Source of the DNA: Dudresnaya verticillata
Lineage: Eukaryota
NCBI GenBank assembly: GCA_977862235.1
Contig: OZ374559.1
Location: 62,001-126,000 of the forward strand
Reading direction: 5' to 3'
Length of the DNA: 64,000 nucleotides
The notes under the pieces are model-generated. The model saw only the letters and a list, made by a program, of their open reading frames with translations, was not told where the DNA came from and ran no database searches. The position numbers and the translations under genes were made by a program. Below, piece by piece: positions 6,501 to 36,570 of this stretch (its first letter is position 1; each line of letters opens with the position of its first letter).

Positions 6501-6546
6501 TAAAACCCCTAAACCCCTAAACCCCTGAACCCCTAAACCCCTAAAC
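6501..6546 (+). repeat. Interstitial telomere-like tract (AAACCCCT)~5
   Basis: taaaacccctaaacccctaaacccctgaacccctaaacccctaaac. Confidence 0.75.
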
Positions 6547-13130: not shown

Positions 13131-13674
13131 TAACGCGATCCATAAGCCTCTGAGAGCATTCCATACTGTACATACGGTTTCCATTACCCCGGTAAAGTCC
13201 CACGTCTCTTCATCTTACAACGTAAACCCCTCAAATAGCCAACGCGCAGTTCCTTGCCGCCATTCCACGTGATCCTCTCCTTGACGACACCACCGTTCCA
13301 ACGAAGTCTCATTATCGCAAGTGGCGGACTCGCAACACTCACGCAAACGTTCCGCCTAGCGAAGGAAGTACCGAGCACTACAACACGGTCAACCTAAACC
13401 ACTTCCGAAAAAAAAACCGTCCGCGTATCCAGAACCCCGCAAGCCTTTACAAACCTTGCAAGACTGTTTGCTAGGCTAGGCGTCTGTCAGACCCCATGAG
13501 GGTTCCCCTCAAGCGGCAACCAAGGCCCAGTCTAGCCCCATTTCAGCCAGCCAATCACATCGCAGAACATTTACAGTGGTTTGGGGGTGCTTACAGGCCG
13601 CCCCGACTGATTTGCGGCCAAGTAAAAAATCGTGCACAAAATCCCCCCCACCAAATCCCCCAAGGAGGGGTAAT

Positions 13675-13756
13675 TAAACCCCTAAACCCCTAAAACCCCT
13701 AAAACCCCCTAAACCCCTAAACCCCTAAAACCCCTAAAACCCCCTAAACCCCTAAA
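13675..13756 (+). repeat. Interstitial telomere-like tract, ~10 units of C4-5TA3-4 (CCCCTAAA)
   Basis: Directly visible. The C-rich strand is on +, i.e. left-chromosome-end polarity. Confidence 0.85.
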
Positions 13757-14296
13757 GTCCTCACCCAGTAACGGAAGCAATCGCAAGAAGAGAACTGCTT
13801 CCGATCGCAAGAAGACAGCTGTTTCCAGTCCTCACACAGGGACGGAAACAATCGCAACTTGGCAACTGTTCCCGGTCCCCACCCAGGGACGGTATCAGTC
13901 GCAAGTTTACAACTGCTTCCGGTCCTCACACAGGGGCGGAAGCCATCGCAAGTTGACAACTGTTTCCGGTCCTCACACAGGGACGGAAGTAGTCGCAAGT
14001 TGACAACTGCTTCCGGTCCTCACCCAGGGACGGAAGCAATCGCAAGTTGACAACTGTTTCCGGTCCTCACCCAGGGACGGAAGCAAGTTGACAACTGTTT
14101 CGGGTCCCCACCCTGGGACGGAAGCAGTCGCAAGTTGACAACTACTTCCGGTCCTCACCCAGAAACGGAAGTAATCGCAGGTTTACAACTGTTTCCGGGC
14201 CTTACCCACAGACGGAAGCAATCGTAAGCTCACAACTGTTTCCGGTCCTCGCCCCACCGGGGACTGGAAGCATTCGCAAGCCGACAACTGCTTCCG
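13757..14296. repeat. 47-bp minisatellite (~12 units), each unit containing an 11-8-11 dyad (cluster A)
   Basis: Unit ggtcctcacacagggacggaagtagtcgcaagttgacaactgcttcc. The spacer is mostly CAAGTTGA. Confidence 0.9.
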
Positions 14297-14901
14297 CGCC
14301 CAGCTTCAACCAGGCCCGGAACATTTCCTATGCGGGGATCCATTCCTATTAGGTACGAAGACCTCAGGACTGGGCTTGGCGGTCCGGGGCAGGTACGCCG
14401 CAGAGAGCTCAAATGTTTAGGGACAGAGACAACCAGGCCAGGTACGGAGCCCGCCGTAATAACATATCTCGGTTGTCCTCTCCTCACGACATCAGTCTTT
14501 CCGTTCCATATGCGATTCTCAGCACAACCTGCCCATCTCCGGCCATGACACAAGTGTTCCCCGAGACACAGCAGACGTGGGGAGTTCGAGGTATCACGGA
14601 CGGAGATGTCAGGACTAATCTCAGCGGAAGGTACCTCTGTCGGTTGCTTGACTTATACCTGTTCCTGCCTCTCCCCAGCCCTAAACCCCTAATCCCTGAG
14701 GCAGGCAAGCCGCAGGGAGTTCAAAGGTTTAGGGACGGAGAGGCCAGGGCAAGGTTGCGCTGCTTAACGCACTACTCGCAAACTACATTACTACATTACT
14801 ACTACTCAGCGCTCGTGGGTCTTCCATGGGAACTCCAACGGTCTCTCCTCACATCCTGACGTCTCCACTTGTGGTGCTTCCATTCTTGTCTCGTCCGAGC
14901 T

Positions 14902-15123
14902 CGGAAGCAGTCACAGATGCTCAATTGCTTCCGCCCTTGTGCCCGCTCCAGCCCGGAAGCAGTTGATGTTTGATAACTGCTCCCGTTCTTTATTCCGCCA
15001 CGACCCGGAAGCAATCGCATGTCCACAACTGCTTCCGCTCCCCACACGCTGACGACCTGCCCATTGATTCCGCCCATCCTCCCAGCTCACCCGGAAACAG
15101 TCGCAAATCGACCATTGCCTCCG
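14902..15123. repeat. Dyad cluster B (4 copies)
   Basis: For example GGAAGCAATCG-CATGTCCA-CAACTGCTTCC at ~15007. Confidence 0.8.
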
Positions 15124-15210
15124 GGCCCTCTCGACAGCGTTTACGCGCTGCTCTCAACCTCTCCTTATGTACAGTATCTTACAAATTCGACTACCCTACA
15201 CTCTACTCCT

Positions 15211-18200
15211 TCAAGCCTGTTCGGTTTCCCCGTCCGACATGTCAGGGTATGAATCCTTGCTCGATTCTTCCTCCCCATCCCCCTCGCCTCTCGGTCCGTT
15301 GCGGGCCACTTGCGTCATTATATGCTCATGCACTATTTCGACGTCACCAGCAAACAGAGTGGAAACGGCTGTACTGCTGTTGAGTTTCAAGTTCCCCTCC
15401 GCAGGTTTTCGGAGCATCCTCTCAACCACTTTCGCCTTCTCCGAAAGCACCACGCCGTCGTCGAACAACTCCGCTTCATCTTTCAGCAGGGCTATCGTGC
15501 TCGCCACAACCATCGCAAATTTTTTCTGCTTCTCCTCTTCCGTGCCCTGCTTCAGCGCCTCGGATGCGCATCCCATGGTTATGCTTCCTACGGTGTTCCT
15601 ATCGTGAGTCCTCCAATTCCGCTTCTTCGCGATAGTCGGTGTGGCTCCACTGCTCCCTCGTGGTGCTACCGGTTGGTCGTCCGTCCTTCTAGCACTGACA
15701 GAGACGTCCTTCGAGCGGCCCGATTGGCTTTCCGGATTCGGCGGGGTTGTCGTTTGCCTCTGCACAGATCCCCGTACAGACGGTTCCTCGGATTGTGAAG
15801 GCATCGGCGGTTCCTGGTCGCTGGACGGTCCGTCTCTCTCACTCAGGGACGGTCGCATGCTTCTCCTTTCCGGTAGCGTCGTCGTCAGCGGTACGTCAAT
15901 TCCCTTCACGCGCGTGTACTCCGTCCTGTCCAGAAACTCCAGCATCGTCGCCTTGGCCTCCGGTTTCGCTTCGCCTTCACGCATCTCCAGTGTAATGGGC
16001 ACTTCGAGGACATGCCCAATCGTTGGCTCGCCTTCCCGTATATAGTACAAGACTCGGGATATACGTGTGGGAATCTTCAGTACACGCCAGGCATTACAAA
16101 CGCCTTTGTACCGCCCTGCAGCATCCTCGATGACTCGAAGTACGTCATAGTCAAACTGACTGCCACCCATGCGCGCCCTGTCCATTGCCTTCTTCGAGCG
16201 CATACCGCTAGCAACTGTACCTGCCCACAAATCCACGTCATACTTCTCCGTAAACATCAATTCACGGAGAATGATCTGCAAGCCTGGGAGAGCCATGGCA
16301 ACTATGGCACACATGTGCGGATTGAGGAGCTTCATCCCCAACGCGGTTTGTGAACGATTCACAGCCCTTATGAAGCAGCCCGTTCCGTCATCCTTCTTCC
16401 AGGTCCGTTTGGCAAATTCGTCGTACTGTGGCCTTCTGTGCCACGTGTTGCCTGCAAACCACCTATAGGCATCCGCGGTATTGTGCGGCATCGATGCTAC
16501 GCACTTCCCAGCACCAAGCACGCAGTTCACAGATCGTAACCCGAGTAGTCCACAGCACAGAAGAGTAGCTGCCCTCGCAGCTCTTGCCCCGATCTTTGCA
16601 GCTTCCCCAGTGACCGACGGTTCAGCCCCATAGTTGGATGCTTGGTAGTAGTATTCTTCCGATTGCGCGTTCGGTCGAAGCTTCCCAAGGCTCGTCAACG
16701 GCTTTGCCTTCGTGTATCCTCCAATCGGGGCCTTCGCAATCATGTTCGCGTCCCGGTATCTATCCATGCGGTTCACAGCGGTAACCATGGCAACCCCGAA
16801 AAACTCAGTCCGGATCAGTCTCCTCTCCCCCTCCGCAATGCAGAACAGGGCCACCTCGTTCAACGCATACGTCTTCTTCGTTCCATCCGCAAGAATCCGC
16901 CGCCCCGTGGGCTGGTGCATACTACTGAACAGAGCGTCGCATTCCTTAGTAAACTCCTTCTTCAGCCAGCGGTATCTTCGCCCATCGTACGGCAGCTTGA
17001 AGGGGTGAGGCACGCCCCCTTCTTCCAACGGTGCGTCCCGAGCGTCCAGTACTTCCAGCGCCCAGGTCACGGCCTGATCTTCACGTATCAGTTGATAGTC
17101 ATATCGGCAACCCATACATGCGTGCTTGATTTCATTGTCGGCAATCTACACACACCCACATATGAAAAGAAAGTCAGAGCAATCTTTCGCCATGCTCAGG
17201 AATGACTGCCTGTCGTCCTCAGCCTTCTGCCTGGACACCACCACAGCCGCAGCGTGATGTTCTTCCAGAGATGTCTGTGGTGCTCTCCTCATAGGACCCT
17301 CCTCGGCATTCGCTTGTAGTCGCGCCCGCTTCGCACCGGCTGTCTCCTTGGAAGCAGCGGCAGTCCGCCCTTCGCTTCGTCTACGAGGTTTCGCATTCCG
17401 ATTCTTCTCGGCAACCTCGCCGATAACTGAGCGTGTCACAATGCCAGCTCGCTCTCCGGCAACCAACCCACCGCGAAGGTACATGCGTGCCGGTTGTTTG
17501 AAAATGTCGTCCGTAGTACCCCATTCAACCATGTCGAGTATTTGTTTGGGCCACGGCCCTATCTCGACCCCCTGCTTAGCACGGGGCAGCAGGCCAGCAG
17601 GGTCCACCGTTCTTCCTGGAAGGGCTTGTGGATTTGCGATTGCTTCCGGAGATCCAGCACTCGGTCGCCTCGACGGTCCTCCGCTACTCTCCTCATATTC
17701 CATTCGCGGGAGGTCGCACTGCTCGCGTATCTTCTGACAAGTGTAAGAAACGGCGCGCTCACTTGCCACGCTGCCTACGGTCGCTTCTTTCGGTATTGCG
17801 ACACGGGTTGGCATCTGCCTCGTACTGCCTGTTCGTAGGCGCGCGCACGACAGAGCCATTTGCACAGGAGTCGTATGCCCGAGACTGGCAGTCGCTTCAT
17901 TCAACCGACTTGCGACAGTTGTCATGAGCCCCTCAAGCCACTTTCCAGCCGCCTTGATATCTCCCTTGTCCCCAGGCATACCCACCAACTGCTGTTGCGG
18001 AATAATCATAAGTGACGCATGCACTGGCACTGTACCGATACTGTTGAGCGCTGCAGCGGACAACCTCACGTTCCCATCATTGATGCCAAGTGGCAGGCTC
18101 GGGGGGAGTACGGGGTCCGGTCCTGCCTTCTTCCAAAGAGGTGGCGCCGGTGGTCGCATCCCCCTCTTGTACCGGTAGAGGTATATAGGCCCAGTCACAC

Positions 18201-19494
18201 TCTTCCCTGGCGGGGGGTGTTCCGCGATTTGCATTCTTTCCAGGTACTCATCGGGCACCTCCAGCTGCAGGGCAGTGGAGGTGGTCATCAGGGATACTTG
18301 CCCCATGCTTTCAATCCATCTCGCAACCTTGTCCCCTGCACTGAAAAAAGATTTCCCCACTTCGCGAATATTTGATCGTGTCGCAATGCGGATGTTCGAC
18401 AACGGCGTCGCCACGGGCCACTTCGTCTCGTCCCCGTCTTTCGGATACAAAGAGTGGCCGATCGGCTGCTTGAAAACAGTTGTGCTCTCAGAACCACTAA
18501 AGTTGACCATTCTCCACGTGTCGAAATACTGCATGACAATAGAAGGATGGGGCATTGCAAAATCGCCGTCCCAGTCGCCAGTCATCCCGACCCCACAGAT
18601 GCCTCTCGGAACCCCGCAATAAAATATAGGCTTCAGAGAAGGGGCCCGCGGAGGCGACAATTCCTCATCACGTTGGTCCCCGTCTGCAGGAGAAGCAGAT
18701 CTTCCGGGACTAACGCCCCTACGCGCAACACCGGAGGACGCCTGGACGTGACGACCGTTGCCAGTGGCAGCCACATTCGACACGTCACCCCGGCCCGTGG
18801 GGTTCGTACCGGCGTTCGATGGCGTGGAATGCCTCTTCTCCGGTGGAATCGGGCGTGACACCATCCCAGTTGCGCGTCGAGGTACGACAGCTGCCTTGTT
18901 CAAACCCTTCGGCGACTTCTCACGAGGTGTCGGTGTAGATGATGTCGCCTCCTTAGCGCCAGGTCGTGTACCCGCTTTTTCCATTGGCTCAGTACCCGCC
19001 TTTTCAGTCGGCTCAGTACCCGCCTTTTCAGTCGGCTCAGTACCCGCCTTTTCAGTCGGCTCAGCCTCTTGCGGTACCGACACGTTCTTCTCCGCGGTCG
19101 ACACCCCATTGACTGCTGACAGTTTGTCAGGTCCAGGTGCAGGACGACGGCGAGGTGCACTTGGTCGCGGCGCACTGCCAGAATCGGCCGCAGGTTTGTC
19201 TCCAGTCGGTACTGCGGGGGTTGGATCCTCATTCTCTCCGTTCCCTGTCGCCTTGGTAGGGGCTGGCGGACCATCCTGTAAAGTCTCAGGGCGGGGAATC
19301 CCATTTGCTCCAGCAGTCCCCCCAGAGCCGCCTACGCTCGGTGCAGCAGCTTCCTTGTTTGGTGAACCATCTCCATCGCGACTCCCACCCGAGCCACGTC
19401 GGCCTCGTCCGCCTGCACGTTGACGACGACTTCGTGTCGCAATAGACTTCCCGCGGCCTTTCCCTGCCCCACTTCTTTTCGGGCTGTTCGTCAT
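15211..19494 (-). CDS. Large hypothetical protein (~1,430 codons) interrupted by one in-frame TAG at 17146-17148
   Basis: ORFs 17146-19533 and 15211-17115 are in the same frame (CGCV*IADNEIKHACMGC). The N-terminus is low-complexity with 4x EPTEKAGT (24-bp repeat, ~18968-19063). Confidence 0.65.
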
Positions 19495-19539
19495 TTCGGT
19501 TTGCTCCCCCTCCTCAGCAGTTTCGTTCTGCACTTCTTG

Positions 19540-20314
19540 CGGAGGCAGTTGTCGGTTTGCAGCTGCTTCCGAGTAACGGACGTTGAGCGGAAGCAGTCGT
19601 TGGTTTGCAACGGCTTCCGGCCCTTCTAGATCGCAACGGGTGGACTTGGTGTAAAAGGATACCCGGTCTTACAGCTGGCGCAGCTGTCAGGTTGCAACTG
19701 CTTCCGGGTATTGTACGTTGCGGAAGCAGTTGTCGGTTTGCAACTGCTTCCAGCTCTTCTGGTCGCAACGGCCGGACTTGATGGAGAAGGAGACCGGTCT
19801 TACAGCGCAAGCAGCTGTCAGGTTGCAACTGCTTCCGGATAGTGCACGTCGTGCGGAAGCAGTTGTCGGTTTGCAGCTGTTTCCGGATCTTCTTGTTCGA
19901 AATTTGATGGTGAAGGATACCTGTCTTACAGCGGAAGCAGCTGTCAGGTTGCAACTGCTTCCGGGTAGTGCACGTCGTGTGGAAGCAGTTGTCGGTTTGC
20001 AAATGCTTCCGGCTCTTCTTGATTGTAACGGTCGACCTTGTCAGAGAAGTGCAGAGAAGTGAACACCGTCTTGCAGCGGAAGCAGATGTCAGTTTGCTAC
20101 CGCTTCCGGGTGGTGGAGGGTGATCCGGAACTGAACCGGAATTAGATCCTGTTTCGGTCCACGTGTTCCGGTCTTGAAGCAGAAGCAGTTCTGTGATTGC
20201 AACTGTTTCCGGGTCTTCTGCTCCGAGACGGACTTGTGCTTGATGAGGATCAAGGCTATGCCCGGAAGATCCAGTTTTCAGGCGGAAGCAGTTGCAAATC
20301 GTCTGCTGCTTCCG
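19540..20314. repeat. Dyad cluster C (~11 copies, spacer polarity opposite to cluster A)
   Basis: GGAAGCAGTTG-TCGGTTTG-CAACTGCTTCC alternates with TCAGGTTG spacers in a ~130-bp higher-order unit. Confidence 0.9.
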
Positions 20315-21049
20315 GTATGCTTCTCCCGTTTACGAGCTTGTCGGCAACCAAACCAAGTGAGAACAGTAGACCGATAGGAGCAAAGCGAGCACAGAGCTGG
20401 AGAAAACTAGTCAGACGCAGTGCCTTCCTCAACTTCTCGTCAGTGTCGTGGCGGAAGCAATAGAGACCTTGACAATTGCAAACCGCGGGGCACAGTAGCG
20501 GCGCAACCCTTCGTGTTCTGGACGACCTGGCTGTTGGTACGAAGCGGGCTACTCCGTTGCAGTCTTGATCAGGACGCTGCTGTAGCAGTGAGGTAGTGTC
20601 GAGTAAGCTCGTCGGTAAAGGGCCTCGCAACGTCGCGGATAAACGCTGCAGTTCCTTCCCACTGAGAGCGGTTATCCGCAGACGCACAGTGTGGCAGTGG
20701 CGCTCCTTGGTGGCGCGTTTGGGGCTTCGAGAAGAGCGCTGCGTCAAGAGGCAGTGACAGTGCGGTTCTGTGTCGCCACAGATCTCCTTCACAGTCCGAC
20801 AGCGGGAGCCCTCAGCAGCACTGGCAGAGCCGTGCGCAAAAGTACGACGGGAAGCCGTGTAGTACACCCAACGACGGCAGTCGGTGCGGTAGGGCGCCGG
20901 GTGGTAGGCAGCGACACAATGCGCCAGCCAGACAACGGGGCAGAAGTCTTGGTAGCTTAGCTAGCAGTAGTTGCGCAGTCGACAGCGAGTACAGCAGTGG
21001 CAATTCCAAACACACCCGTCACAGTATCTGTGTCGATGCAGAGGGTGCG

Positions 21050-21460
21050 GGTAGACTGCGCAGGCGCAGGTGCAGGCGCAGTGTGCCGGTAGAGTGCGCG
21101 GGCGGGGGCGCGGGCGGGTTCTTGGACTTATGTGTGCGGGCGGGGGCGCAGGCGCAGGTGCAGGCGCAGTGTGTCGGTAGAGTGCGCTGGCGGGGGCGCG
21201 GGCGGGTTCTTGGACTTATGTGTGCGGGCGGGGGCGCAGGTGCAGTTGCAGGCGCGGTCTTGGGGCTTGGTGCGCGGTCGGGGGCGCGGGCGCGGGCGCG
21301 GGCGAGGTTGCGGGCGAGGTTGCAGCGGTGACGGCGCGGGCGCAGGAGCACGCGCGGTGTTGCGGTTTGGTGCGCGGTCGGGGGCGCGGGCGCAGGCGAG
21401 GTTGCGGGCGAGGTTGCGGCGGTGACGGCGCGGCCGCGGGCGCGGGCGCGGGTGAGGTAG
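21050..21460. repeat. GC-rich low-complexity tandem duplications
   Basis: Duplicated ~89-bp block containing gggcgggttcttggacttatgtgtgcggg, plus gcgggcgaggtt repeats. Confidence 0.75.
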
Positions 21461-22223
21461 CGGTGTTAGCGTAGAGAGCACGGGCGCGGGCGCGACTGTG
21501 CGGGTTGGGGTGGCAGTGGCGGTGTCGGCGTGAGCGGGAAGAGGGTGGAGGGTCCGTCGGTGGGGGTAGTTATGCCGCGGAAGCAATCGCGGGCGGGCGG
21601 GCGGCGTACATGAAGGCGGGAAATCGCGCGACGACGGCCGACGACGGCCAACGGCTGCAGGTGATGATTTGTAATTTTTGCGCCAAACAGTGGGAGATTC
21701 ATATTCTTTCCAGATTATCGACTGGGCATTAGACAAGTGTCGACCTCTGCTTCCTCCACATCTCCCTAGCCCATCACACGGACATCTGTCCTCCCATCTC
21801 TCGCATCACCGGACTGCATGACCCGCCTGCTCCCCTCATCCGCACGCGGCTTTTCCCCATATCAATCCCGCACTTTCCCTCCCCCACCTTCCCACCGTGC
21901 AGCACTCCCCCGCTTCCTTCGTGTCCGCTTTTCCTTCCCGGCCGTCTTGTCGCTTGCAGCATTCGTCGCCTGGGCAGCCTTCATAGTCTTCCTTCCCTGA
22001 GGCCTATCCCGCAACCGCACCGCACCCCGCGACGACGGCGACCGATGGTGGTCCGCGCAGGTCCCGCTTTCCAACACCGCGACAGGCTATGCAAGTCTCG
22101 GGCTATTCCTCCTGCTCACCTTTTTGGACAACTGCGGCGTATGGCAGATTCTAGCGCGGGCTACTGCTCAGGCAGGCTGATGTGCGTCCGCACATCGGAG
22201 CATACGCACACGCAGTCTCCCTC

Positions 22224-23045
22224 ATGATGCACGCGGGGTTCTGGCATGACAGGGACCATGAACGCATCCTGGCACATCTCACTGCGCTGCTGGTGGCAAT
22301 GAAGCTTCATCTACGTGACAGTCGTGTCTTGTCCGAGCTGAGGGCGTTGCTGGATGAGCAGTACGTGCAGGTGTTCGAGGAGGACGTACGTGAGCTCCCT
22401 GTCCGATGCATGGACGTGCTGCTGGCCTATCTAGACTCTGTAGACGCTGTTGAGGAAACTGTTGTAGCGGAGGGGAATAGACCTATCTTTGTCACTGCGT
22501 TCACCATGCAAGCCAGTCTTTGGGAAGCAGACCGTGCGCTGTGGGAGTGCGTCGCGATGAAGGAGGCTCCCATCGCACCCGCGTTCACGCTGCACGTACG
22601 TGCGTTCGCGGCCATCTGTTTCGTCTTACCACATTTGGACGAGAGCGATGAAGCAGACTCTGAGGTTTGCTTATTTGATGCCCGCGCAGAGAGGCGCACA
22701 GAGCGCTCGCTGTTCACGCACCTTCTACTCTCTAGACCGTGGTTTGCACTCGTGCTGACATTTTCGTGGGCTTCGGTTGCTTACTCGCGCTTCGAACGGG
22801 CAGGCGGACTTTGGGAAGGGAGACTCCGCGCGGGATGTCACTCACTTGCAGCTAATGTTTACATCTTCTATCGCGACGATGCGATACATGCAAGAGATAA
22901 ACATTGCCTCCTTGGGCTGATTGCAGAAAAACCGCTGCTGCTGAAGGCTGAGCTACGCAACTCTCGAGACGTACGAGACGTCAGCGCTTTATTGACATCA
23001 ACGGACCTTGCAAGCATGTCTGGGGCCGATAAAATGACGTTATAG
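22224..23045 (+). CDS. Hypothetical protein (~273 aa)
   Basis: Uninterrupted ORF with protein-like composition and no recognised motif. Confidence 0.45.
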   Translation: MMHAGFWHDRDHERILAHLTALLVAMKLHLRDSRVLSELRALLDEQYVQVFEEDVRELPVRCMDVLLAYLDSVDAVEETVVAEGNRPIFVTAFTMQASLWEADRALWECVAMKEAPIAPAFTLHVRAFAAICFVLPHLDESDEADSEVCLFDARAERRTERSLFTHLLLSRPWFALVLTFSWASVAYSRFERAGGLWEGRLRAGCHSLAANVYIFYRDDAIHARDKHCLLGLIAEKPLLLKAELRNSRDVRDVSALLTSTDLASMSGADKMTL

Positions 23046-26000
23046 TGCGCTAGTGTGGTTCGCGCGTGGCTTACGCGTATTGTCCTCTACTCAGACAAGC
23101 TGCTGAATGCGGAGCAATCGCGCCCAGGAGGGCGTGGGGGAAGTCGTGTCTTCAAGAAGCTCACTCGCACGGCTTTTCAATTAACAATGGACGTGGTGCA
23201 ACCATCAATGAAGATGACTTATGCACGATTGAGCAATGGCCGATTTTGCGTAATTGTGGCAGATATGTTACACGAGCAGCCATTGCTGGTTTTGTCACAA
23301 CTGCAGACTGACAACAATATCATCAGAGGTCCTCACAACGCAGGCCGCACATACGCAGAGTCATCTGCCACGCAAGTTTCTGCTAGTACTGAGCGGGTGG
23401 CAGGAACGTAGCAAGCCTGCCTTTCCGTCCTTTGCGATAACAACTGCCATATTAGCCCGTTACTACGGGTTCAGAGCTGCCTACTATTGTATCCTGGCTG
23501 CGAGACTGTTTGTCAGTTTTAGTCGACTCAGGTGAACCGACGCAACCAAGGAAAGACTATGAAAGCCCCAGGCAGTCCGCGATATCACCTTTCTCTTGCA
23601 CAGTGCCCTCCTATTGATATTCTTGACTCCGGGCTTTTGGTGCTTCACTGGCGAATAGCGGTGCCAAGGCGCCTCAAAGGGCTGCAGCTCTACTGCATTA
23701 CACTCCAGCCAGCGCCTGAACCCCATGCTAGAAACAAAAGAGTGGAACAAGCTGCTCCAAGCCCTGGAGATCACGCTATAATCCGATCCGTCTCCTATAG
23801 TTGCGGCACTAGCCATTCACGAGCCCTTCTAGCTCGGTCATCCAAAGCACCTCATCTGCTCCCGCGCCTTTCTTCTCGCCACCTACATTCCCCCTCCCCT
23901 GCAGTACACCTTTCGCACCTTGCAAATATTCCCAACTGGTCTTGAAGTTAACCCCGCTGCGAAAATTCCACATAAGCGCCTCAATCCCATTTCGCAAACT
24001 ATCTAGCCCAGTGCCAAACCTCGCCTTCACCTCCTCAACTCCCGCCACGCTATCGCTGTGAATCTCCTGTGCGAACGCATCTGCCGAAGCGCAACAGTGT
24101 AAGTCCCATGCAGCACATCTCCCTTCCGCAACACTCGGTCCTTTGCCTGCATCAGCCTATCTACTCCATTCCGTCATCGTCAAGTCCGCCATGACCTGCC
24201 GCCGCGTACATCTCCCGAAGCACATGCTCCCATTCCACCGCTTCTGCGCAAAAACGAGCTTTCCACACGCACGCTGCGCTTCGTACCATGCCCACACCTC
24301 CCGGCATGCCGCCGTATGCCGCACACATGCGCAGTGCACCCACAAGGTCCCTCCCGAGCCCTTGTCCGACATATGCACCGCCCTCTTCCCGCCTGCTCCG
24401 CACGGCTACGGCATCGCGCCCTCGCACAGCAGCAAGCTGGTGCGCAACGCGCGCTACAAGCGCGAGGTCGGCCAAAGTGGATCGAAAGCCTTTCGAGCCG
24501 GCCGAGAGGAGGAAGACCAGCTCCGGGTAGGCGGGATGAAGCAGGGCGCCCTCGAGCTTGAGGATGGTGAGCCGGCGGAGGGCGTCGAATAGGGAGCGGG
24601 TCTTGCGCGTGAGAGTGATTGCGAGGCGTGCTGCGGGGTACGCTAACCCGCGGCGAATTGCTTTCTGCAGCACAGAGCGCAGGATGGAGTGCGGCAGACG
24701 CGACGCGGGGCTTCCCCCGCTTCAGCGAGGCGTTGTGTGCAGTTGCCCGTCCCCAACTACACTGACCTCTCACCGAATGCACAACACAACTATTCTGTCA
24801 GCGTAGGAAAGAAATCGAGGTACATGGACCAGGGCTCACTCCCGGCAATTCATACAGAAGTTCCCATTGCGCGTTCCCGGTCACGAAACAGCGCAAGCGG
24901 CTTGTTATGTGCGGCAGCCAGAGCCGTTTCACCAACCAGCAGGCCTATTCCTGCTAGAGCATCACGTGGCGGAGAAACTTGCGCCGGTGAAGGCAACACC
25001 CGGCTTTGGCCCAGAGAGATCTGTGTTGCATACGCGTTGACTTGAGAATGCTTCGCAGTAACGCGCATGACAATGGTGTTTCGTCCGGCAAATTGCGTAG
25101 CGCTGATCTGGCTCATGCCGTAGTGCTATGGCGGAGGGCTGCTGCCGCTGTAGTCCATTCGAGTTGGAGTACAGTGCTGGTCGCTGGTCATCAAGACGGC
25201 TGCGTCACGGGTTGGTTTGGTTTGGTTTGTAGGCGACTGCTGCACACCAGCCCTATACGGACCGAGTGCTCGTGAGACGAGGCGGTGCCTGCACCGCGCG
25301 CGCACCTGCCACCGCATCGCGAACCACGCTTCAGCACGAGCGTCTGACGCTCTATATCATTCGCCAGCCCATGCGCCGAATAGATTTGTCGCTGTGCCAA
25401 GACCTGTTTGGCCTTCGTGTGCGTCCTAACACCCACTTCCTCATCGTCGTTATTGCCCAGTTGCCCCCTCTCGCCTTTCGAGATAACATAGATAGCCGGC
25501 CTACACTCAGTCCTGCGTTCACCCTACCGCTGGACACACTCACTCGCTCCCCGTGTCATCTATCCGACAGCTCGCTGTCTGGCTGTCACCTGCTCACTTC
25601 CGCGCCCTCTTCCACTCTTGCCCATTTAACGAAGCAGCCTGTTGTCAAGCTGTCAGTGTCCAACAATCCGCGCTCTTCGGAACGGCGTCATCGGCAACTG
25701 CATACAGAAACCCTTTGGACGAGAATAGGGTACTGCAGCGGGGTATACATCTAGTACAGGAAAGGGCCTTAATGCCCCCATCCATTCCCGAATCCCTGTC
25801 CACAACAGTAGATGTCAACGCTCATTCTCATTCCAAACTGTTCTAAAACTTAACAGCCGATGCTGAGTGCGAGTTGGACTACATGCACAGCACAGCGACA
25901 GGAGGCGGAGCAGCCGATATGCTGCATGGCACCGCAGCCGCTAGCGTATCCGTAGTTCTGAACGCGAATATGCGCCATGCCCTACACCGTCACGTGATCA

Positions 26001-26952
26001 TTCCTATCTTGCTCCCGCAGGACACCAATACGCTGCGGTACGGTAAGCCATAAATCAGCGGGGTCAGGTAAGTTCTGGCAATTATCCGTACGCTAAGAGG
26101 AAGCCACGGGGGCAGTAGCCAGAGCAGTTGCGGTTGATTCAACACGCAGTACATCCAATTCACTCGAAACCTTCCCAGGTCCCTCGCGCGGGGTCGAATG
26201 CATCGTCTGGCCGTCTTATGGCACCCTGCATTACTCGAGAGGCTACTCGGGCATAGCACACTGCTGACCCGGTTTCGAAAGTTGAGAACGCGTTATTAGT
26301 TTCACTTCTTCTTCGCCCTCTTCCACACTTGGTCCTTTAACGCAGAAGCATGTCGCCAAGCGCGTACGGTGCAGCATTCCGCGCGCTTCACAACGGCGCC
26401 CGTGGCAACTGCAAAGCAACCATCGCGTTGATGAAACTGTCATTGTATGTCATAAACATGGCGCCACAGTGAGAGTAACTGCGCGTTCCACGTACGGTAG
26501 GACACCTGATCCCGTCGCGGCAACATCGTAGCTGCAATTCGTTTCATGTCCTATTGCTGCATATCAAACCCCGTTACAAAATGCGAGCTGCGTAAGGTGT
26601 CAATTGTTCCATCAGCTTGCATCTTGAGTAGCCAACTACGGCTGCTGGTCAGTTCACTGTAGGGCTGCCACCTGATCGTCCTGCCAACCTCTTTGGCACA
26701 ACATGCCTCTGTCGCAGCAATATTGTGTTTGCAATGCACTTGATGTCCGATTGCGGTAGATCGAATGGCATTACGAAAGGCGAGGTGCGTAACGTTTCAA
26801 TTGTTCCACCAGATTGCAATCTGCACATGAGACGCTGGGCCATTTCGGAAGAGGGCATGAGAAGAACTTTCAGCAAGGCGCAGAAAGACTTGTTGTTGAT
26901 TAGTAAGCTCATGCAGCAAGGAGCGGTGAGAACGTTGTCAACTCGAGCAACT

Positions 26953-27087
26953 CCAGGCACAAGTGCCGGAGAGTTGCTCAATTTGCAGGCGGCGCAGTTC
27001 ACCACGCATAGTGTTAGACCAGGCACAAGTGCCGGGGAGGTGCTCAATTTGCAGGCTGCGCAATTCACCACGCATAGTGTTAGACCC
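26953..27087. repeat. 66-bp tandem duplication
   Basis: ccaggcacaagtgccgg...catagtgttaga occurs twice. Confidence 0.85.
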
Positions 27088-28001
27088 TGAAACTCGCCGT
27101 CGGGAGGCAGGCCTGCCCTTTCCGGTTCAATGTATTGGTAGGTGCCACGGGTATGAAATCTGCTTTCACATACAGTTTCGACACCACTGGCGGGAGAAAG
27201 CCGAAGCCCACGCAGCAAACCAAGCTCCCACACTGCTAAACCAAGCTATTCGACGCCCTTCCCAAAAGGCGACAAACGGCTTTGCCACGGTCTCGTCATG
27301 CAGCAGAGCCGTCAGACGGTTTCACACAGCCAGATTCGCTGCAATCTTGACCAGCCCCAGTGCGGCTGCGTTGCCCATCGGTAGCGATGCGTGGGAGTAT
27401 TTCTGGACTGGGGCGGGATTTGGTCGCGGCACAACAGCGCCGCTCCAGCGACCCGCAACGGCGGCGACGATGTGCGGGCATCGTCGCGGGTGTCAGGTGG
27501 AGTTGGGAGCGTGGTGCGCAGGGGGGTTGTGCAGTGCACTTGACGGCGGTGACCGTTGCAGATCTTGAGGCAGCCGGGCGTGGTGCGCAGGGACAACAAC
27601 ACGTGTATGCAGCGGTCGTTGGAGGTGCGGGTGCTGCAGTCCGTTTCGAAACTTTACAACTTTTCTGAACATATTGTAGCTTGCCCTAAACGATCGGAGA
27701 TCAGTACTAAAATGCGACGCCGGTAGGAGACTCCTCTCCACCCTACTATCGACTGCGCGCGGAAACCAACCTCTACCCTCGCACTACCCTCACTCTCACC
27801 TCGCACTACCCAAGCTCCAACCTCAACCTACCCTGCTTCTTCTAACCTCGCGCTTTCCACCCCACTCTGGCGCGATCGACCCATCCTAGCGCGCGCGACC
27901 AACGTCCCTTTACCATTACCGCTTGCACCGTACGTCCGCGCGTTTTGCATTCCATCTTCCCCGACGACGGCGATATTACGATCACTCGCAACTGGCGCGC
28001 T

Positions 28002-28090
28002 CTGGTATTCGTGTTACGCTTGTTATCGTGTCAACACGTGCACACGGTGTGCACGTGTTGACACGAGAATGCGCGTAACACGAATACCAG
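28002..28090. repeat. 89-bp near-perfect palindrome (18-6-20-1-20-6-18)
   Basis: ctggtattcgtgttacgc / gcgtaacacgaataccag and tcgtgtcaacacgtgcacac / gtgtgcacgtgttgacacga are exact reverse complements. Confidence 0.95.
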
Positions 28091-28127
28091 GGTTGCCACG
28101 TGGACACGTATGCCTTGCATGCTTTCC

Positions 28128-28401
28128 GGAACCGTTTGCTGTTCTGCTTCCGCAGAAGCAGTAGAAGCACCGTGACAGCTTCCACAGTCGCGTCCCTGCG
28201 CGTCCCGCGGAAGCCGTCGCAACTCCACTACTCCTTCCGCAACGGATGCTTGCCTTGCCTCCACCTACTAACAGCTACCATCTGACCGCGGAAACAGTTG
28301 CCTATCTACATCTTTTTTCGCAACCATTAACTGTCATCTGCGCATTTGCTAACACTCCCAGTCTGTCTGCGGAGCCCGTCGCAAACCTATAACTGCTTCC
28401 G
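28128..28401. repeat. Dyad cluster D (4-5 degenerate copies) downstream of the YR-RecQ gene
   Basis: For example GGAAGCCGTCG-CAACTCCA-CTACTCCTTCC and GGAGCCCGTCG-CAAACCTA-TAACTGCTTCC. Confidence 0.65.
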
Positions 28402-28649
28402 CTGCATTCTCTCACTTCTCTAGCGCCTCGCGTCTTTCCGCAGATTCCGCAGCCGCCTCCACCATTGGTATCTTATACAACCTCCTTCTCCACCACCTCC
28501 TGCTCACCGTCCCGCGCTGCAACTTCGTTGCAGTTATTTACCCACTCCCGCGTCAAAAACTAACAATCATTCCTTTACTTCTATTCTCGCTTCACTTTAC
28601 ATATTCAAGGGACACACAGGTACGTGCTGGAGTCGCGTTCTTCACATTT

Positions 28650-31600
28650 CTACAACCCAAAAACCTCCACAGCATAGCGACAAAACTCTAGAATTCCGGG
28701 GCACCATCCCGGTTTGTCTACGAGAAGTTCCTCGCAAAACTGTTGCAGTCCTGTGCATCTCCTGAATCTCTGCATTCCCGTATGCTTCTTCATCTCCTCC
28801 CTCCACCGCTGGTTGTTCCACATCATCAGGGCCAGTTGCACAGGCCTATAGAAGGGACACCGCTCCAAAGATCCATACTCGTTCTGCCCCCGCAGTGGAC
28901 TACCGCTACCTACATGTGTCTTCTTCGAACCAAAGGTCTTCATCGAACATTCAGAACACCTGTTCGAAAAGAGCCCCCTCTTCGACTTCCAAGGCCGCAT
29001 CCCGCACTGTGTGGCCCTGTGCCCTGACTTCATGCAGCGAAAGCACAGTCCAAAGCTACAGACTCTGCAATGCTCCTTCGACTTCACCGCTTCAAGTCCG
29101 GCTGCATCCCCGGGTCTCGAACGCCCCCAGCACGGCGCGCATACCGTTCCCAGCTTCATCGAGAGATCCCGTAATTCTTCCACCGCATCCATCGCTCGCC
29201 GTCCGAACAGCAGCCACCACGCTGTCCTCCGGAGTACACTGTACGTCCAGACTCAACTCAGGTGCAGCTTGCAGCTGATTGCCCCCGCCCTCAGCTGGCA
29301 ACAGCTCCCCACTCGAATCACTGTCGTCGGTATCTCCCGCCAGCTTCTCCAGGTGTATCTGCGTCGGACTCGCATACACACCCCCGGTCGAGGCCAAGAG
29401 TACCGACGAGGCCTCCTCCAGGACTGGAGCAGGCTTGGCACATACATCGCACAACTGTACGGTCTCGTCTGGCAGTGTGGTCACACGCTCCGTACAGTTG
29501 CTCGGTACCTCCGGGCATCCCAGGTATTGCTCGATGGCCACACTTCGACACCGCCCCGTTTCTTCGGCCCATCTCTGGAATCGCTTAAGAGCCATCAGAC
29601 CCTCCGTGTCCCTTACATTTGCACGGTCCCCAAACTCACGGTGGTACAGTACACTCACAACCCCGCTCTTTCCATCCCTTCCAACCCGCCCGGCAACTTG
29701 GTACAGCTCCAACAGTGAACGGGTGCTCCCAACAATCACTGTCTTTGACACGTCAGGAGCATCAATTCCCGTCCCAAACCCTTCCGTAGCAATCATCACG
29801 CAAACGGTAAGCTCCCCCGCCCTCCCCCACTTCCACTGGGACACACTCCGCCGCCGCGCAGTATCATTCATCCCACTGTGATACTTCGATATCACAACCC
29901 TCCGGGATGCTTTAAACTCTCTCCTCGCGCAAAGGGCTGCATGCATATCATCCGCTTCACCCTTAGTAAGTACACACACCAGAACCTTCCCCCCCGCGCG
30001 CTCGGAAAAGGCCAGGCGTACCCCTGCCATCACACTGTCATTAACACACCCCATCACTTCTTCATCCTCCGCACTGGACAGCAGGTGCACACTGTACAGT
30101 ACATTGTTCCGCCGCATGCTTCCACGAACAACCTCCGTGTCCCCAACATTCGCACCACAGGCAGCAATTATCCTGTTCCCCATATGCACCGGGGCTGTGG
30201 CTGTCATCATTATCAGAGGGACACGCACGCGAGCCGGTCTCGCGTGACGCATCCGTAACATGCACTCCCGATAGTGCGCGCTCAATAGGATAATGTGAGC
30301 CTCATCCACAACAACCCTCATCAACTTCTTGTTCTTGTGCAACACGCGCAGAGCAGCCTTGTATTTCGCCAAAGACACATGCTCTGGCGCGGCCAGGATT
30401 ATACCTTTGCCGAATATTTCCATCTGTTCGTGATCATGGACGTCTTCGAAATCCAAAACGGGCAGCATGATGCTGTCGCACCGCTCTCTGATCTCCTCAC
30501 GCAACACACGAAGGGGGCATATGAAAACAGTCACCCCTTCCTCGCGCAATGCGGGCCCAAAAATAACCGCAGTCTTGCCAGCCCCCGTCCGAAGTACAAT
30601 TAACGCGCCCCTCTCCCTCCTGACAACAACCCTCATTGCATCCTTCTGTTTCTCACTCCTGAACTCAGCCTCAGGATCTCCAACCGCTTCCTGGAGACAC
30701 TCAACCAAACTCCATCGGGTCCCAGGTGACACGTCTTCATCAGACGACGAATACTCTCCCCTCTCACTTTCCAGCCTCTCCTTCTCATTAATTTGACGAA
30801 CGTCCTGTTCGTAAACATCCATTCTCTTTCCGATATCGGAAAGAAACCCGACCAGCTTGCTTAAGAGCTCAGGGTCCCCCGCCTTCGGCTTCCCATCCCT
30901 CTCCTCACCCTCACTCCGTCGAAGACCATGAACGCCCTTCTCCGCAGCAGCAGCATTCACTGCGTTCACACCATCCCCCCCGCTCTGCCCCCGTCCCTCC
31001 CCTCTCTCTCCTTCCCACGCCACCCCTTCACTCACGCCCACGGTCACCGCGTTCACATCCCTTGTCCCCGCCGCCGCACCCCGTTCTTCCGTTCTCTCTC
31101 CTTGCGACCCAGGCACTTCACTCGGGCCTGCTGCGCACCTCCCCCTCCGCCTCCGTCGGCGCAAGAACATCTCCTCCTCCATCACTGCGAATTTGAGCTT
31201 CCGACGCTTCCCGGTACCTTCCATGACTTCCGCATCCGCGGCCCATCGAACCCTCTTCTTCCCTCTCTCTTCACGGTTGCCGCCGCTGTGCGTGCCACTA
31301 GCACCACCGGCTGTATCCACCAATACCCTCACATCCCCCTCCTGCAGATCTACAGCACCTCTTTCAGTGCGCGACGGCGGTCGAGGGACAACTTCTCGCA
31401 TTCCCTCTGTCCCATTCCCGCTTTCAGCCTCCCCATCACCCTCCAAACGACCCATTTCCGCTCGGGGCACCTGTCCCGCAAAGCTCGGAGAGCCTGGCGG
31501 CAGTTGCAATTCCACATCTGCATCCGGCTCGCTCCCACCATTCCGAGATCCGAGGGACTCCAGCAGCTCCGGAAGCAGTTCCAAATCAATATGTGCTTCC

Positions 31601-34600
31601 GGGTCGCTCCCACCATTTCGAGATCCAAAGGACTCCGGGAGCTCCGGAAGAAGTTCCAAGCCGATATCTGCTTCCGGATCGCTCCCAGCATTCCTAGATC
31701 CGATCAAACCCGGAAGCAGTCGCAACCGATCTTCTGCTTCCAGCTCGCTTCCATCCCTGCTCACTCCCATTTCATCTTCCATCGCTTCCCCAAACAGTTG
31801 CCTCCTGACCCCGCCACCTCGCCCCGATTTCTTCTCCTGTTTGCGCCCTTCGGCCTCCGACTCACGCTCCTTCCGACTTCCGCCGACACTTCCCGGAAGC
31901 ACTCGCAACCCGGCAACGACTTCCGCAACGGAAATGCTTCCACACTCCACTCCTCCCCCGCTCGCTCCCCCCAACAACTGCCGTCGAACCCCCAAGGGCC
32001 CGACCGCTTCCTCCCTTCGTCTTCCACAATCCGTACCCGAGGCCTTTCCACTTCCTCCAAAGTCCTCGCCCTCCTCCTCGTCGGCCACAATTTCATTCCA
32101 GTCGACGTTGCTCGCCAACCCACAGTCGAGGAGCCACCCATCTGAAGCTCGCTTGAAATTCTTCATTCTTCGGTCGTCGATTTGCCCCCCTCCGGCAATG
32201 TTCGGTGCGCATGCCCCATACAGCGTCCGAGCCACCTCCATCGAATGCGCTCCCTGCACCTGCAGCACATTCCCGACAGCCCCGCCGCGCATCGCTTCCT
32301 CCTCCGATTGTTCCTGCGGAGTATTGCTCAACACCCTCGCTACAACCCGAAAGTCAGCATCCTGGTTCGCCTTGTCATTGGCATACCCGCCAAACCACTG
32401 CCGATGCATTTCGGCACTGTAATCTTCGGGCAACCCAAATTTCCTCCACATGATGGAGGCCATTTGCAAGCACCCGTTTCGAGCGCTCTCAGTGGGCATC
32501 AAGTAATCGTAAGCACCGTCTTGATCCACATCTTGGACCCTTCCTGACCCTCCCCGTTGCAGATGCCGGGACAGCGCCAGGCGCAAGTCCATACCGACAA
32601 GAATCATCACCTTGAGAAGATTGCTTGTCACCACATCCGGGTGCTTACTGATCACCCGCATCTTCCCTCTCTTCATGTTCCTGGTCTTGTCGTATGTCGG
32701 AATAACGGCGACCCGAGGTCCACCGGGAAACTGTATTCCTCGCGGTCCACTTGCCGTGTTCCTCACAGCCAAAAAACCCAGCTCCGGACCCCGGCACACA
32801 TTGCCTCCAGACAAGTGCATGCAGGCCACAACAAGCACATTGAACTTCCTTATAACAGACAGCATCTCCCTCGCCCGCTTGTCGAAAGCTCCGTCAGAAA
32901 GATGATCCATCTTCCTCACTGCCTCACCCACCAAATCTCGGCATTCCCGAGCAATATCCCCATTCCGTTCATCGGCCATGAACCCGTACGGGACCAGCTT
33001 CCTCGTCGTGTGGTCCACAATCTGGGACAGTCGCCCCTGAAAGTTCGTTGGCATCTCGACCCCTCCCAGAATACCATCCGCTCCAAACATCAGCCGCACC
33101 GCCTCTTTTTGCATCTTCTTCACGCAATGGCCAATCTCCTTCGGACTCATGTGCAGCCCCTCCACATATCCACAACACAACCCGTCGTGTTTCAGGTCTT
33201 CGCAAGGCATCCACGTGTTCCTCGCATACTCCTCATTTCGAAACCTTCGCGCCTGCAAACAAAGAGACTGGAGAAAGTGAATTCCAAGACTCCCGCCAGC
33301 CTGATGCCTCACTTCCACCCTGGCCAACTCTTCTTCACTCGTACCCTCCTCCGGGCTGCATATGTCCATCAACGCACAGCAAGAGCTCGCATACGCAAGC
33401 GCAGCAAGAACCGGGGACACATCCCTCCCTTGCGAGAAAGTAACACCCCTCCCTGCCCGCTTCACGCCGAGACAGGTTGTCAGGACATGGGCAGCGCAGA
33501 AGCGACTACCCTCATCCACGCTTACCTTCTCGTATAGCAAAGCCCTCAAGAGGCGGTGCATTGCTCGGACAGCTTCAGACCTCTTCCCCGGAACCGGTCG
33601 CAATTCGACATCTGCTTCCGCGTCCCGGTTCTTCTCCTCCAGGTACACAACCATCACCTTCGCACAAGCATCCCGTACTTCTTCACTACCGATCAACCCT
33701 TTCGCAGATTCAGGCCCATCCGTCATCCGCAAAAGACCCAGTGCCACACCTGCCACCGATGACGCATACCTCTTCCTCGATTGCTTCTGCACAAGCACAA
33801 ATTCTTTCTTGTCCGTCCTGTTCGCACCTGGCGGAGCTCGACAGCCAGCAACACTCTGGCCATGGACATATTTGGCCTTCCAAAGCACAGCCGCCCAGCC
33901 TCGAACAGCGAAAGAACAGTCTTCGCCAACCACTTTTTGAGATCCACCTCATCGGCTCCACAAACCATCACCCCCCCGCTCGCTTCCCCACACAGCTTCG
34001 CGGCCTCCTCCATGGACATTTTGAGCTGTTCAAGCTTCAAGTCCAGCCTCGTTGCACTCGCAAACCCTCCCATCTTCCTCACATCCTTTTCCACAGGCTC
34101 TTCCACTTCGACTCTTTCCTTCTCGACCTTCTTGAGCTCCTGCAGAAGACGTCGAACATTTGAAGTTCCCTGCCCACTTGCTTGCCCACCTCCACTAGCG
34201 TGAGTATTGCCCTCTACCTCGTCCTTGATAACAAACGGGTTTCCCACTGCGTTGGATTTGAACAGTTTCTGGCACTTCATGACCCCAAGTCTCTTCATCT
34301 CTGTGAGGGTAATCTTCTTTCCAGAAGACCTGTGCATTTCGAAATGCTTCTTCATCGACTCGGGAGAGGACGACATGAATGCCCACTCCGAGCAGGGAAC
34401 ACATTGCAACACCTTCAGAAACGGAATACGGCGCACACTGCAACGAGACATTTCTGGCGCACAAGTTCCTATGTACGCTCCGTACTCTTCTTCCGAGCAG
34501 CTCTTCACAATCCCGTCCTTCACGGTCTTCCATGCCTTGAAAATGTCGTTGGATTCCAAGCGACTGATTCTCCTACCCGGCTGGCACTTCTGTATATGCC

Positions 34601-34754
34601 TGAACAGGTTGTCAGCACCGCGCGCTCCAAAGAACACGGCATGTCGACACACACCGCATCCAAGCTCAGCAACCTCGGGAATCAGATGCAAGTTGTACTC
34701 AGCCAGCTTGGAAACCGCCGATTGAACAACCTCAATACGGTCAACTGAACCCAT
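28650..34754 (-). CDS. Zn-finger / tyrosine-recombinase-like / RecQ helicase / CCHC fusion resembling telomere-linked helicases, split by two frameshifts (~33836 and ~29190-29250)
   Basis: RecQ motifs: TGAGKT, PLRVL, DEAH, TAT, YHSGM, ATEGFGTGIDAPDV, QVAGRVGRDG and RQC CR...C...CDVC. YR-like motifs: SGGNVCRGPEL, YDK, MHRQ and GAHS...LYG. N-terminal CGVC...HIQKC and CVPC...HFEMH; C-terminal CFRCMKSGHRATQC. Confidence 0.85.
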
Positions 34755-34877
34755 GTCGTAATGCGGGGTCACCACAGCTTCCTCAACGTCACAAACCTCT
34801 CGTTCGATGAAAAAAGCTGCATATGTCGGAAAATGTGATTCAGGTTAGCGTACTGAGTATGCTTCCGTAGCAGTTCG

Positions 34878-35106
34878 GTGGAACACATCGCGAGTTCGCG
34901 ACTGCTTCCGGCGGAAGAAGTCGCGAGGTCGCGACTGCTTCCGGCGGAAGAAATCGCGAGGTCGCGACTGCTTCCGGCGGAAGAAATCGCGAGGTCGCGA
35001 CTGCTTCCGGACCCCCAACCGAGAGGTCTCCGGAAGCTGTCGCAAACCCGCAACTGCTTCCGCAGAGAGCTCCCCGGAAACAGTAGCTTACATTCCACTG
35101 CTTCCA
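34878..35106. repeat. Dyad cluster E (6 copies, four in a 33-bp tandem) upstream of the YR-RecQ gene
   Basis: cggaagaaatcg-cgaggtcg-cgactgcttccg tandem, plus cggaagctgtcg-caaacccg-caactgcttccg. Confidence 0.9.
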
Positions 35107-35677
35107 GGTGGCTCCCCAAGCACGCTTACGGTTTCAAAACTGGTGAGTAATTGCTTACCGGAATTCGAAAACGCAAGAAGTAATTACGGTAATTACGAAC
35201 GCTGGCCGTCGCTGTCGTCGTCGTCGTCGTCTCTCTCGTCGCAGTCGTCGCCGTCGTCACCGTCGTCGCTGTCGGAGCAACAGCAATGTTTCGCTCGTCG
35301 ATCGCGGTTCGTTCCGTCGCTCAACTGAAATGGGAAAAGAAGAGTTAGCGCACGCTTCATAGGCAGACAGGTCTCCCGCAAATAGTCGCAAGTCGCTCGC
35401 AACATCCGCTTCGCGACGGTGGGGGAGGAGGCTGAACGAACCTGTCGTCCCTAGGGTCGGGCCTTGGTGAGTTTGGTGGAGGGGAGGGGGGTGCTCGCAA
35501 CAGGCTACAGCCTTTAAGTACTGTTTTCGAACAGATCCTTCCTTCTGTTGGCGCGAGTACCGTTCCGGTTTCCATTTCCGCGGGAAAACTGTTACGGTTT
35601 CGCACGCATGACGTGGCGGCCGGCGTCGTCGTCCACGTCGCCGACTCGGATACACTTCACACATTCTGATCTCATCG

Positions 35678-36570
35678 GAGCTCAGATCCAGACGTGATCT
35701 GATCCATTCCTGATATCTAATCAGTTCTGTAACGTGTGTTTGCAAATGTTCTCCGGAAGCATCCGCAACCTAGCACCTGCTTCCACGGAACGATCTTGTC
35801 GTACCTACCCGGTTACTACCTTCCCTGTGGACCGGTTGGTCTTCCCCATGGACCAAACGCTCTTCCCCGTGGACCAAACGCTCTTCTTCACGTATCCAAC
35901 GCTCTTCCCTGGGACTCCGTCGGTCTTCCCTGGAACTGCATTGGTCTTCCCTGGAACTGCGTTGATTTTCCCTGGAACTGCGTTGGTCTTTCCTGGAACT
36001 GCGTTGGTCTTCCCTGGGATTGCGTTGGTCTTCCCTGGGATTGCGTTGGTCTTCCCTGGGGATTGCGTTGGTCTTCCCTGCAACTGCGTTGGTCTTCCCT
36101 GGGGAACTGCGTTGGTCTACTGGTCACGGTCGACGTCGACCATTCTGACTCCGATAGTCTTCACAGCTTCTCATCTCATCGAAGCTCAGATCCAGACTTG
36201 ATCGGATGCGTTTGGTATGTCGGGTCAGTTCTGGAATGTATGATTGCAAACGCGCTCCGGCAGTGTCCGCAACCTAGCACCGGCTTCCAGGGAACGGTAT
36301 TGTAGTATCTACCCGGTTACTATCTCCCATATGGTCCCGTTGCTCTTCCATGTGGATCCAACACTCTTCCCCGGGACCAGATAGTGTTCCCTGGGCCCCT
36401 GTTGGTCTTCCCTGGGACTGCGTTGGTCTTCCCTGGAACTGCGTTGGTCTTCCCTGGGGACTGCGTTGGTCTTCCCTGGAATTGCGTTGGTCTTCCCTGG
36501 AACTGCGTTGGTCTTCCCTGGGCATTGCGTTGGTCTTCCCTGGGAATTGCGTTGATGTTCCCTGGGACGC
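35678..36570. repeat. ~500-bp diverged duplication, each copy with one dyad followed by a 21-bp minisatellite (gcgttggtcttccctggaact)
   Basis: Shared leader agctcagatccagac...gcaacctagcacc at ~35680 and ~36183. Arrays lie at ~35900-36118 and ~36398-36570. Confidence 0.9.

Follow-up and report, generated by a model that had tools for sequence, protein, structure and literature searches.

Telomere-linked helicase (TLH) regions of fungi and Monosiga share a zinc-finger, middle-domain and RecQ architecture, where the gene runs towards telomere-type repeats and is accompanied by flanking tandem-repeat blocks and interstitial telomere repeats. In Fusarium, TLH regions such as TLHcr of F. oxysporum are flanked by interstitial telomere repeats, and the function of the TLH gene is given as undetermined in the accessible portion of the same source (bioRxiv 2024.02.27.582403). 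HAR-D of M. oryzae is described, in the part of the article available, as containing a conserved 23-bp imperfect palindrome within the core that resists truncation (PMC1635262). The accessible sections of these two sources do not describe the published TLH domain as a recombinase (PMC1635262; bioRxiv 2024.02.27.582403), and no open-access paper was found that pairs TLH or RecQ with a tyrosine recombinase (YR).

The 64,000-nucleotide stretch of contig OZ374559.1 of Dudresnaya verticillata analysed here (the window) contains a segment which likely belongs to the TLH regions with helicase-associated repeats, and which is best explained as a decaying TLH-type element with two genes (Table 1). It resembles them in its domain architecture, in the direction of its gene towards a telomere-like tract and in its flanking repeats, but, unlike the fungal TLH/HAR regions, it carries a second, orphan gene and a single dyad that occurs on either strand, also within ORFs, in clusters of different construction. 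These dyads are tentatively interpreted below as arrays of protein-binding sites.

Further comparisons are provided by recombination systems and by viral repeats. Integron IntI performs recombination with one-sided homology. Acinetobacter pdif modules, in the descriptions accessible, have genes bracketed by YR-shaped sites as in the present segment, and IntDOT sites, according to the available part of PMC2817482, likewise conserve bases at one spacer edge only. Unlike IntDOT, IntI and pdif, the segment has tandem clusters instead of single sites, no attC-like covariation, and a eukaryotic YR fused to RecQ. The hr regions of baculoviruses are similar in comprising, as far as the accessible accounts go, several dispersed clusters of 3–10 repeats with a 24–32-bp imperfect palindrome, but the segment differs from them in that no viral genes were detected (Pfam, PHROGs), in its directional sites and in its chromosome-end context.

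Organisation of the segment

Table 1. Features of the TLH-type segment, with positions counted from the first letter of the window
Feature	Position	Strand	Remarks
Irregular telomere-like tract	13675..13756	+	TAAACCCC/TAAAACCCC units; C-rich on +
Dyad cluster A	13772..14296	+	10 full copies, ~47-bp period, plus 2 broken
Dyad cluster B	14902..15123	+	4 copies, just downstream of orphan gene
Orphan gene	15211..19533	-	two ORFs in one frame, ~1440 codons
Single dyad in orphan ORF	17617..17648	-	
Dyad cluster C	19540..20314	-	11 copies (10 on -, last on +), directly upstream of orphan gene
Exact 11-8-11 match	19722-19751		
Long palindrome	28002..28090	.	44-bp arms, 91% complementary, 1-nt centre
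Dyad cluster D	28127..28401	+	4 full copies and one 6-bp-deleted copy, downstream of TLH-type gene
TLH-type gene	28650..34775	-	zinc fingers, YR domain, RecQ helicase, Cys-rich C-terminus
RecQ-type DEAD + Helicase_C core	29671..30651	-	
Dyad cluster E	31495..31925	+	5 copies inside TLH ORF, in YR-helicase linker
Tyrosine-recombinase-fold domain	32119..33576	-	R381, K416, R511, H563, Y572 (numbering of the 29092-33933 ORF)
Single dyad in TLH ORF	33589..33620	+	poorly conserved stretch ahead of YR domain
Dyad cluster G	34879..35106	.	6 copies, directly upstream of TLH-type gene
504-bp duplication	35625..36568	+	one dyad per unit (35754, 36258), then 21-bp tandem array

Downstream of the TLH-type gene, at a distance of 15 kb and in the expected orientation, is the telomere-like tract, which is probably the left boundary of the segment, now interstitial and of presumed telomeric role. 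Cluster A starts 16 bp to its right, and both genes are transcribed towards it. The 504-bp duplication with its 21-bp arrays (35.9–36.6 kb) is the probable right boundary, and no terminal inverted or direct repeats of the segment were found. All 44 strong dyads of the PWM scan described below are situated between the tract and the 21-bp arrays; this confinement to a segment carrying a YR-RecQ gene lends support, within the window, to an earlier sequence-only reading of this DNA. Each gene has one dyad cluster directly upstream (C and G) and one downstream (B and D), and tandem-repeat blocks (47-, 126-, 33- and 21-bp arrays) flank the TLH-type gene.

The long palindrome (89 bp, z -11.2) abuts cluster D on the telomere-ward side of the TLH-type gene and is the sole one of its kind in the window. 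The protelomerase-like structural matches reported below make it a candidate for a resolution site or a hairpin end, although one base at its centre is unpaired. The dyad-free interior (20400-28000) contains GC-rich repeats (21.0–21.5 kb) and a bestrophin-like fragment (22182-23045), and may represent cargo that was captured or the space separating two distinct units.

The two ORFs of the orphan gene are split by a single TAG (17146-17148) located inside a Cys/His cluster. No homologs, Pfam or PHROG families, or DNA-binding family were detected for this gene; Atlas gave a weak lead, at 0.92 and among mixed families, to DUF6532/DUF6698 of fungi, and the single-sequence structure model is unusable (pLDDT 31).

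The window is eukaryotic in character, with Sel1/TIR/Roc genes, which are reminiscent of red algae and suggest that the host is probably not a fungus, and copia-type and other reverse transcriptase (RT) genes. To the left of the segment, four intronless paralogous ORFs of an unknown family (457-1632, 2003-3406, 5081-6412 and 8977-10173; 19–49% identity) surround a second telomere-like tract (6501-6546), and together they possibly represent another chromosome-end unit. A 102-bp tandem repeat occupies 7021-7301, with a related single copy (73–76% identity) 3.4 kb away at 3606-3698, and three diverged ~210-bp copies (12536-13131) are found between the ORF at 10466-12151 and the telomere-like tract of the segment. 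To the right, an RT ORF (RVT_1; 38005-40578) has an upstream region (37119-38070) which is repeated at 53115-54064 (98%), and a copia-type pol (RVT_2, rve) is encoded at 60802-63489. Between them, a Sel1-repeat/Roc/TIR gene cluster (44166-59943) contains arrays of 111-bp repeats and inverted copies of paralogs, and resembles a family of immune receptors that undergoes repeat shuffling.

The TLH-type gene and its recombinase-fold domain

The TLH-type gene is spread over three frames by two frameshifts, with breaks near 33.9 and 29.2 kb. Its N-terminal zinc-finger motifs (Cx2Cx16Hx3C and Cx2Cx15Hx3H) are near to, and not exactly, the published TLH C2H2 patterns, and the N-terminal region matches the N-termini of homologs (E 2.7e-24). 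The helicase core is recognised by Pfam (DEAD 9e-13, Helicase_C 1e-10), and its family profile matches RecQ5/BLM at 1e-75. HMMER recovered 115 relatives of the middle part of the protein (20–45% identity), including relatives of the YR domain that a word-indexed protein search had missed. Among 16 relatives scanned, DEAD and Helicase_C are present in 13/16 and OrsD/DUF3505 (E<=0.001) in 6/16, and the combination of OrsD/DUF3505, DEAD and Helicase_C is reported, in the accessible part of the source, for a Fusarium subtelomeric helicase (bioRxiv 2023.02.05.527183). The linker between the YR domain and the helicase is 515 aa long, as against 85–314 aa in 20 homologs. The contig of one relative (L001) contains a YR region (2490-3186) followed by a second, diverged copy (6775-7327), suggesting tandem TLH-type units.

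Upstream of the helicase, at a place equivalent to that of the published 'TLH domain', lies a conserved domain which is predicted to adopt the tyrosine-recombinase fold. The catalytic R, K, R, H and Y residues, whose roles are assigned by motif order and not by superposition, are conserved in 55/56, 56/56, 49/53, 51/51 and 50/51 non-gap alignment rows, respectively, while the His of HxxR is not conserved. An AlphaFold model of the domain built from 57 sequences (pLDDT 83.9) has no Foldseek match at E<=0.001, and a PDB sequence search with the region gave no match. In VIA-align the top seven structural matches of the model are all tyrosine recombinases (Z 8.0–9.1), among them XerA (9.1; rmsd 3.6, 170 aligned), Brujita Int (8.8), IntI (8.3) and XerH (8.2), followed by topoisomerase IB, Cre (Z 7.6), protelomerase and Flp (Z 6.0); the scores of the top seven exceed the stated background (7–8) by a small margin only, but the list of matches is coherent. 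Some of the alignments cover both the N-terminal and the catalytic parts. No other YR-family match occurs in the window. The assignment of a YR domain in the sequence-only reading is accordingly sound, given the modelled structure and the near-invariant R381, K416, R511, H563 and Y572.

Copy number and geometry of the dyad

The dyad was originally delineated as two 11-bp arms around an 8-bp spacer, present in about 45 copies. With at most three mismatches this pattern gives 24 matches in the window against 0.00 expected (100 shuffles), and with at most six mismatches 45 sites with the 8-bp spacer are found, where spacer lengths from 0 to 20 other than 8 yield scattered matches of 4–6 mismatches only. 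The arms in fact reach 12 bp, and the dyad is a 32-bp site of 12-8-12 organisation. A PWM trained on 42 of the sites, the in-sample scores of which are inflated, gives 45 matches at >=12 bits, comprising 44 in 13772-36289 and one weak match outside, at 11683, whose 13.7 bits fall inside the range of shuffled sequence (0.08 matches per shuffle, maximum 19.1 bits). The proposed copy number is thus confirmed as 44 strong sites, with every named cluster and single copy recovered. The near-invariance of the spacer length also holds: when PWM half-sites are allowed a free gap of 0 to 16, 70 strand-hits occur at 8 bp, one at 2 and one at 14, and the window contains no full copy with a 7- or 9-bp spacer or with a spacer changed by 2 bp.

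Broken copies are few. At least three exist: two have lost 6 bp (near 14078 and at 28127) and one is partly duplicated (13796-13820). Lone half-sites occur at 20452 and 21578. Despite the invariant length of the dyad, the distance between sites within a cluster ranges from 33 to 103 bp; in cluster G, four copies follow a 33-bp period and have a nearly symmetric spacer. Exact-pattern scans of viral, metagenome and prokaryote collections returned 0 loci, and an Rfam search of 12.0–37.5 kb gave 0 matches.

Sequence, direction and constraint

The oriented consensus of the dyad is CGGAAGCAGTYG-CAAnYYrA-CAACTGCTTCCG, and the dyad has a direction because CAA opens the spacer in 32/44 oriented copies. 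This direction is no artefact of orienting, as it is visible on the raw + strand, where 21/33 of the sites outside cluster C and the 17617 site start with CAA and 0 end with TTG, and all 11 sites of the cluster C and 17617 groups carry TTG at the end. With clusters weighted equally, spacer positions 1–3 are conserved like the arms (C 0.95, A 0.83, A 0.85), and positions 4–8 at 0.40–0.61 only. The earlier statement that the spacer sequence differs among copies is accordingly correct for positions 4–8 and incorrect for the CAA start. There are 32 distinct spacers in the 44 sites; among 830 cross-group pairs, 416 share the first three spacer bases, 54 the last three, and 1 the whole spacer.

The best-kept bases are the outer GGAA/TTCC of the arms and not those adjacent to the spacer. 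Identity between clusters is 0.6–1.0 at outer arm positions and ~0.25 just outside the 32 bp, and conservation ends sharply at the dyad edges in every cluster, symmetrically between the arms. When the dyads are masked, blastn (word size 7) detects no similarity linking the clusters, and, because they have no other DNA in common, the motif itself looks selected. The selection on the dyad that had been suspected is thus supported by the fixed length, the drop in identity outside the 32 bp and the unrelated flanks.

Changes in the arms are one-sided in 99 cases and compensatory in 2, against 3.7 expected (p=0.91), and the hairpin energies of the dyads spread widely from -3 to -14 kcal/mol, which points to a constraint on sequence and spacing in double-stranded DNA; such a constraint is what would be expected of a site that a dimeric protein recognises. 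A hairpin or RNA role is rejected since the arm changes are not compensatory, and by the same counts the dyads do not behave as attC-type folded single-stranded sites. All seven dyads inside ORFs share one reading frame (E-A...L-P), which is expected by chance at ~4% for four independent groups and hints at an extra coding constraint. A purely protein-coding origin is nevertheless rejected, because most periods (46–48, 52, 55, 85, 97 and 103) break the frame and both directions are read in ORFs.

Possible roles of the dyads

The dyads are tentatively regarded, at a probability of about 0.45, as binding-site arrays in double-stranded DNA, likely for the YR domain of the element itself acting as a dimer, and not as loxP-type crossover sites. 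The invariant length, the sharp edges, the absence of covariation, the confinement to the segment, the YR fold and the 12-8-12 geometry (loxP and FRT being 13-8-13) count in favour of this reading. One YR protomer would occupy each 12-bp arm across the 8-bp spacer, and clustered sites may serve to load or organise the YR-RecQ protein, concentrating it on the element in the manner of arm-type, iteron or subterminal sites; its helicase and nicking activities could then bring about pairing and copying of the element at the ends of chromosomes. Further dyads would arise by local duplication and persist in intergenic DNA and tolerant linkers. Against this reading, it is the inner bases of the arms that are usually conserved in YR sites, whereas the outer ones are best kept here, and the 15 sites of clusters B and C adjoin the orphan gene and not the TLH-type gene. 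The modest structural scores with no Foldseek match, and the common reading frame of the dyads inside ORFs, also count against it. The dyad family is present in 0/5 metagenome loci of YR-RecQ relatives (1–7.5 kb and mostly coding; best PWM score 7.1 bits), and no related loci in viral contigs were confirmed. As the TLH-type gene is twice frameshifted, any present selection would have to come from copies elsewhere.

The sequence-only reading had offered binding or crossover sites for the YR domain, of which the YR-like geometry is supported and crossover of the loxP/FRT type is not. The loxP/Cre and FRT/Flp systems resemble the segment in having 12–13-bp inverted arms, an 8-bp asymmetric and directional spacer and a linked YR-fold protein, and the dyads do possess inverted arms around a fixed asymmetric spacer (12-8-12, directional). 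Those systems differ in employing two sites, as against 44 degenerate, tandem-clustered copies here, and classical YR crossover needs identical spacers, which the accessible part of PMC2817482 gives as the general rule. With spacer identity in 1/830 pairs, the dyads are not to be filed as loxP/FRT-type sites; this rarity and the non-compensatory arm changes argue against both loxP/FRT-type crossover and a hairpin role, and the preference for the outer arm bases is a further departure. A set of 44 degenerate sites that extends into coding DNA is easier to reconcile with a binding array than with crossover.

It is rather unlikely that another protein binds the dyads, the candidates being the orphan product, the zinc fingers of the TLH-type protein and a host factor, and that they serve as enhancer, origin or boundary elements through which the genes can still be expressed or replicated close to a telomere. 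Clusters C and G are placed 7–105 bp upstream of predicted ORF starts, and B and D past the stops, as would suit such elements, and the outer cores are the best-conserved part of the dyad. Baculovirus hrs are built alike, where each of 3–8 repeats has a 24-bp imperfect palindrome and the region acts as origin and enhancer, according to the available part of PMC4535591. However, 32 bp with a fixed 8-bp centre of low information is long for a eukaryotic transcription factor, and the orphan protein is without a detected DNA-binding family.

Strand exchange by the YR at the dyads, with homology needed on one side only, is considered unlikely. With CAA conserved at one edge of the spacer, any two sites could undergo the first exchange, after which RecQ or replication would resolve the junction, with telomere-directed copying or gene-cassette shuffling as the outcome. 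This is consistent with the sharing of the first three spacer bases by 416/830 pairs (against 54 for the last three and 1 for all eight), with the intact YR catalytic residues, with the clusters bracketing each gene, and with IntDOT, for which identity over just 2 bp where cleavage first takes place is stated in the accessible part of PMC2817482 to be enough. On the other hand, an element with 44 degenerate active sites, seven of them within ORFs, should be unstable; each of the site types that alternate in cluster C retains, as judged by eye, flanks of its own, which gives no clear signature of exchange; and a longer contact on the left would explain the CAA conservation equally well.

A neutral relic, in which slippage and gene conversion multiplied an ancestral repeat unit that no protein binds, is very unlikely: copies within clusters plainly derive from tandem duplication (periods of 47, 126, 75 and 33 bp), broken copies exist and the PWM scan favours copies of fixed length, but the conservation edges are sharp in all clusters with symmetric arms, the cluster flanks are unrelated, and no copy was found in which the spacer departs from 8 bp by 1 or 2 bp.

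Implications for TLH regions

A 32-bp site of recombinase geometry, of which 44 copies accompany a TLH gene whose YR active site is intact, is a concrete candidate substrate, and the question of whether TLH regions are self-mobilising elements becomes directly testable with it. The one-sided conservation of CAA predicts the position of a nick. In its boldest form, which is held to be unlikely, the dyad would be the DNA substrate of a recombinase residing in TLH proteins, where the YR would nick the junction between arm and CAA and swap one strand between any two sites, and RecQ would turn the product into a copying fork. If this is true, TLH regions would be site-specific, telomere-directed eukaryotic mobile elements with dozens of built-in entry sites.
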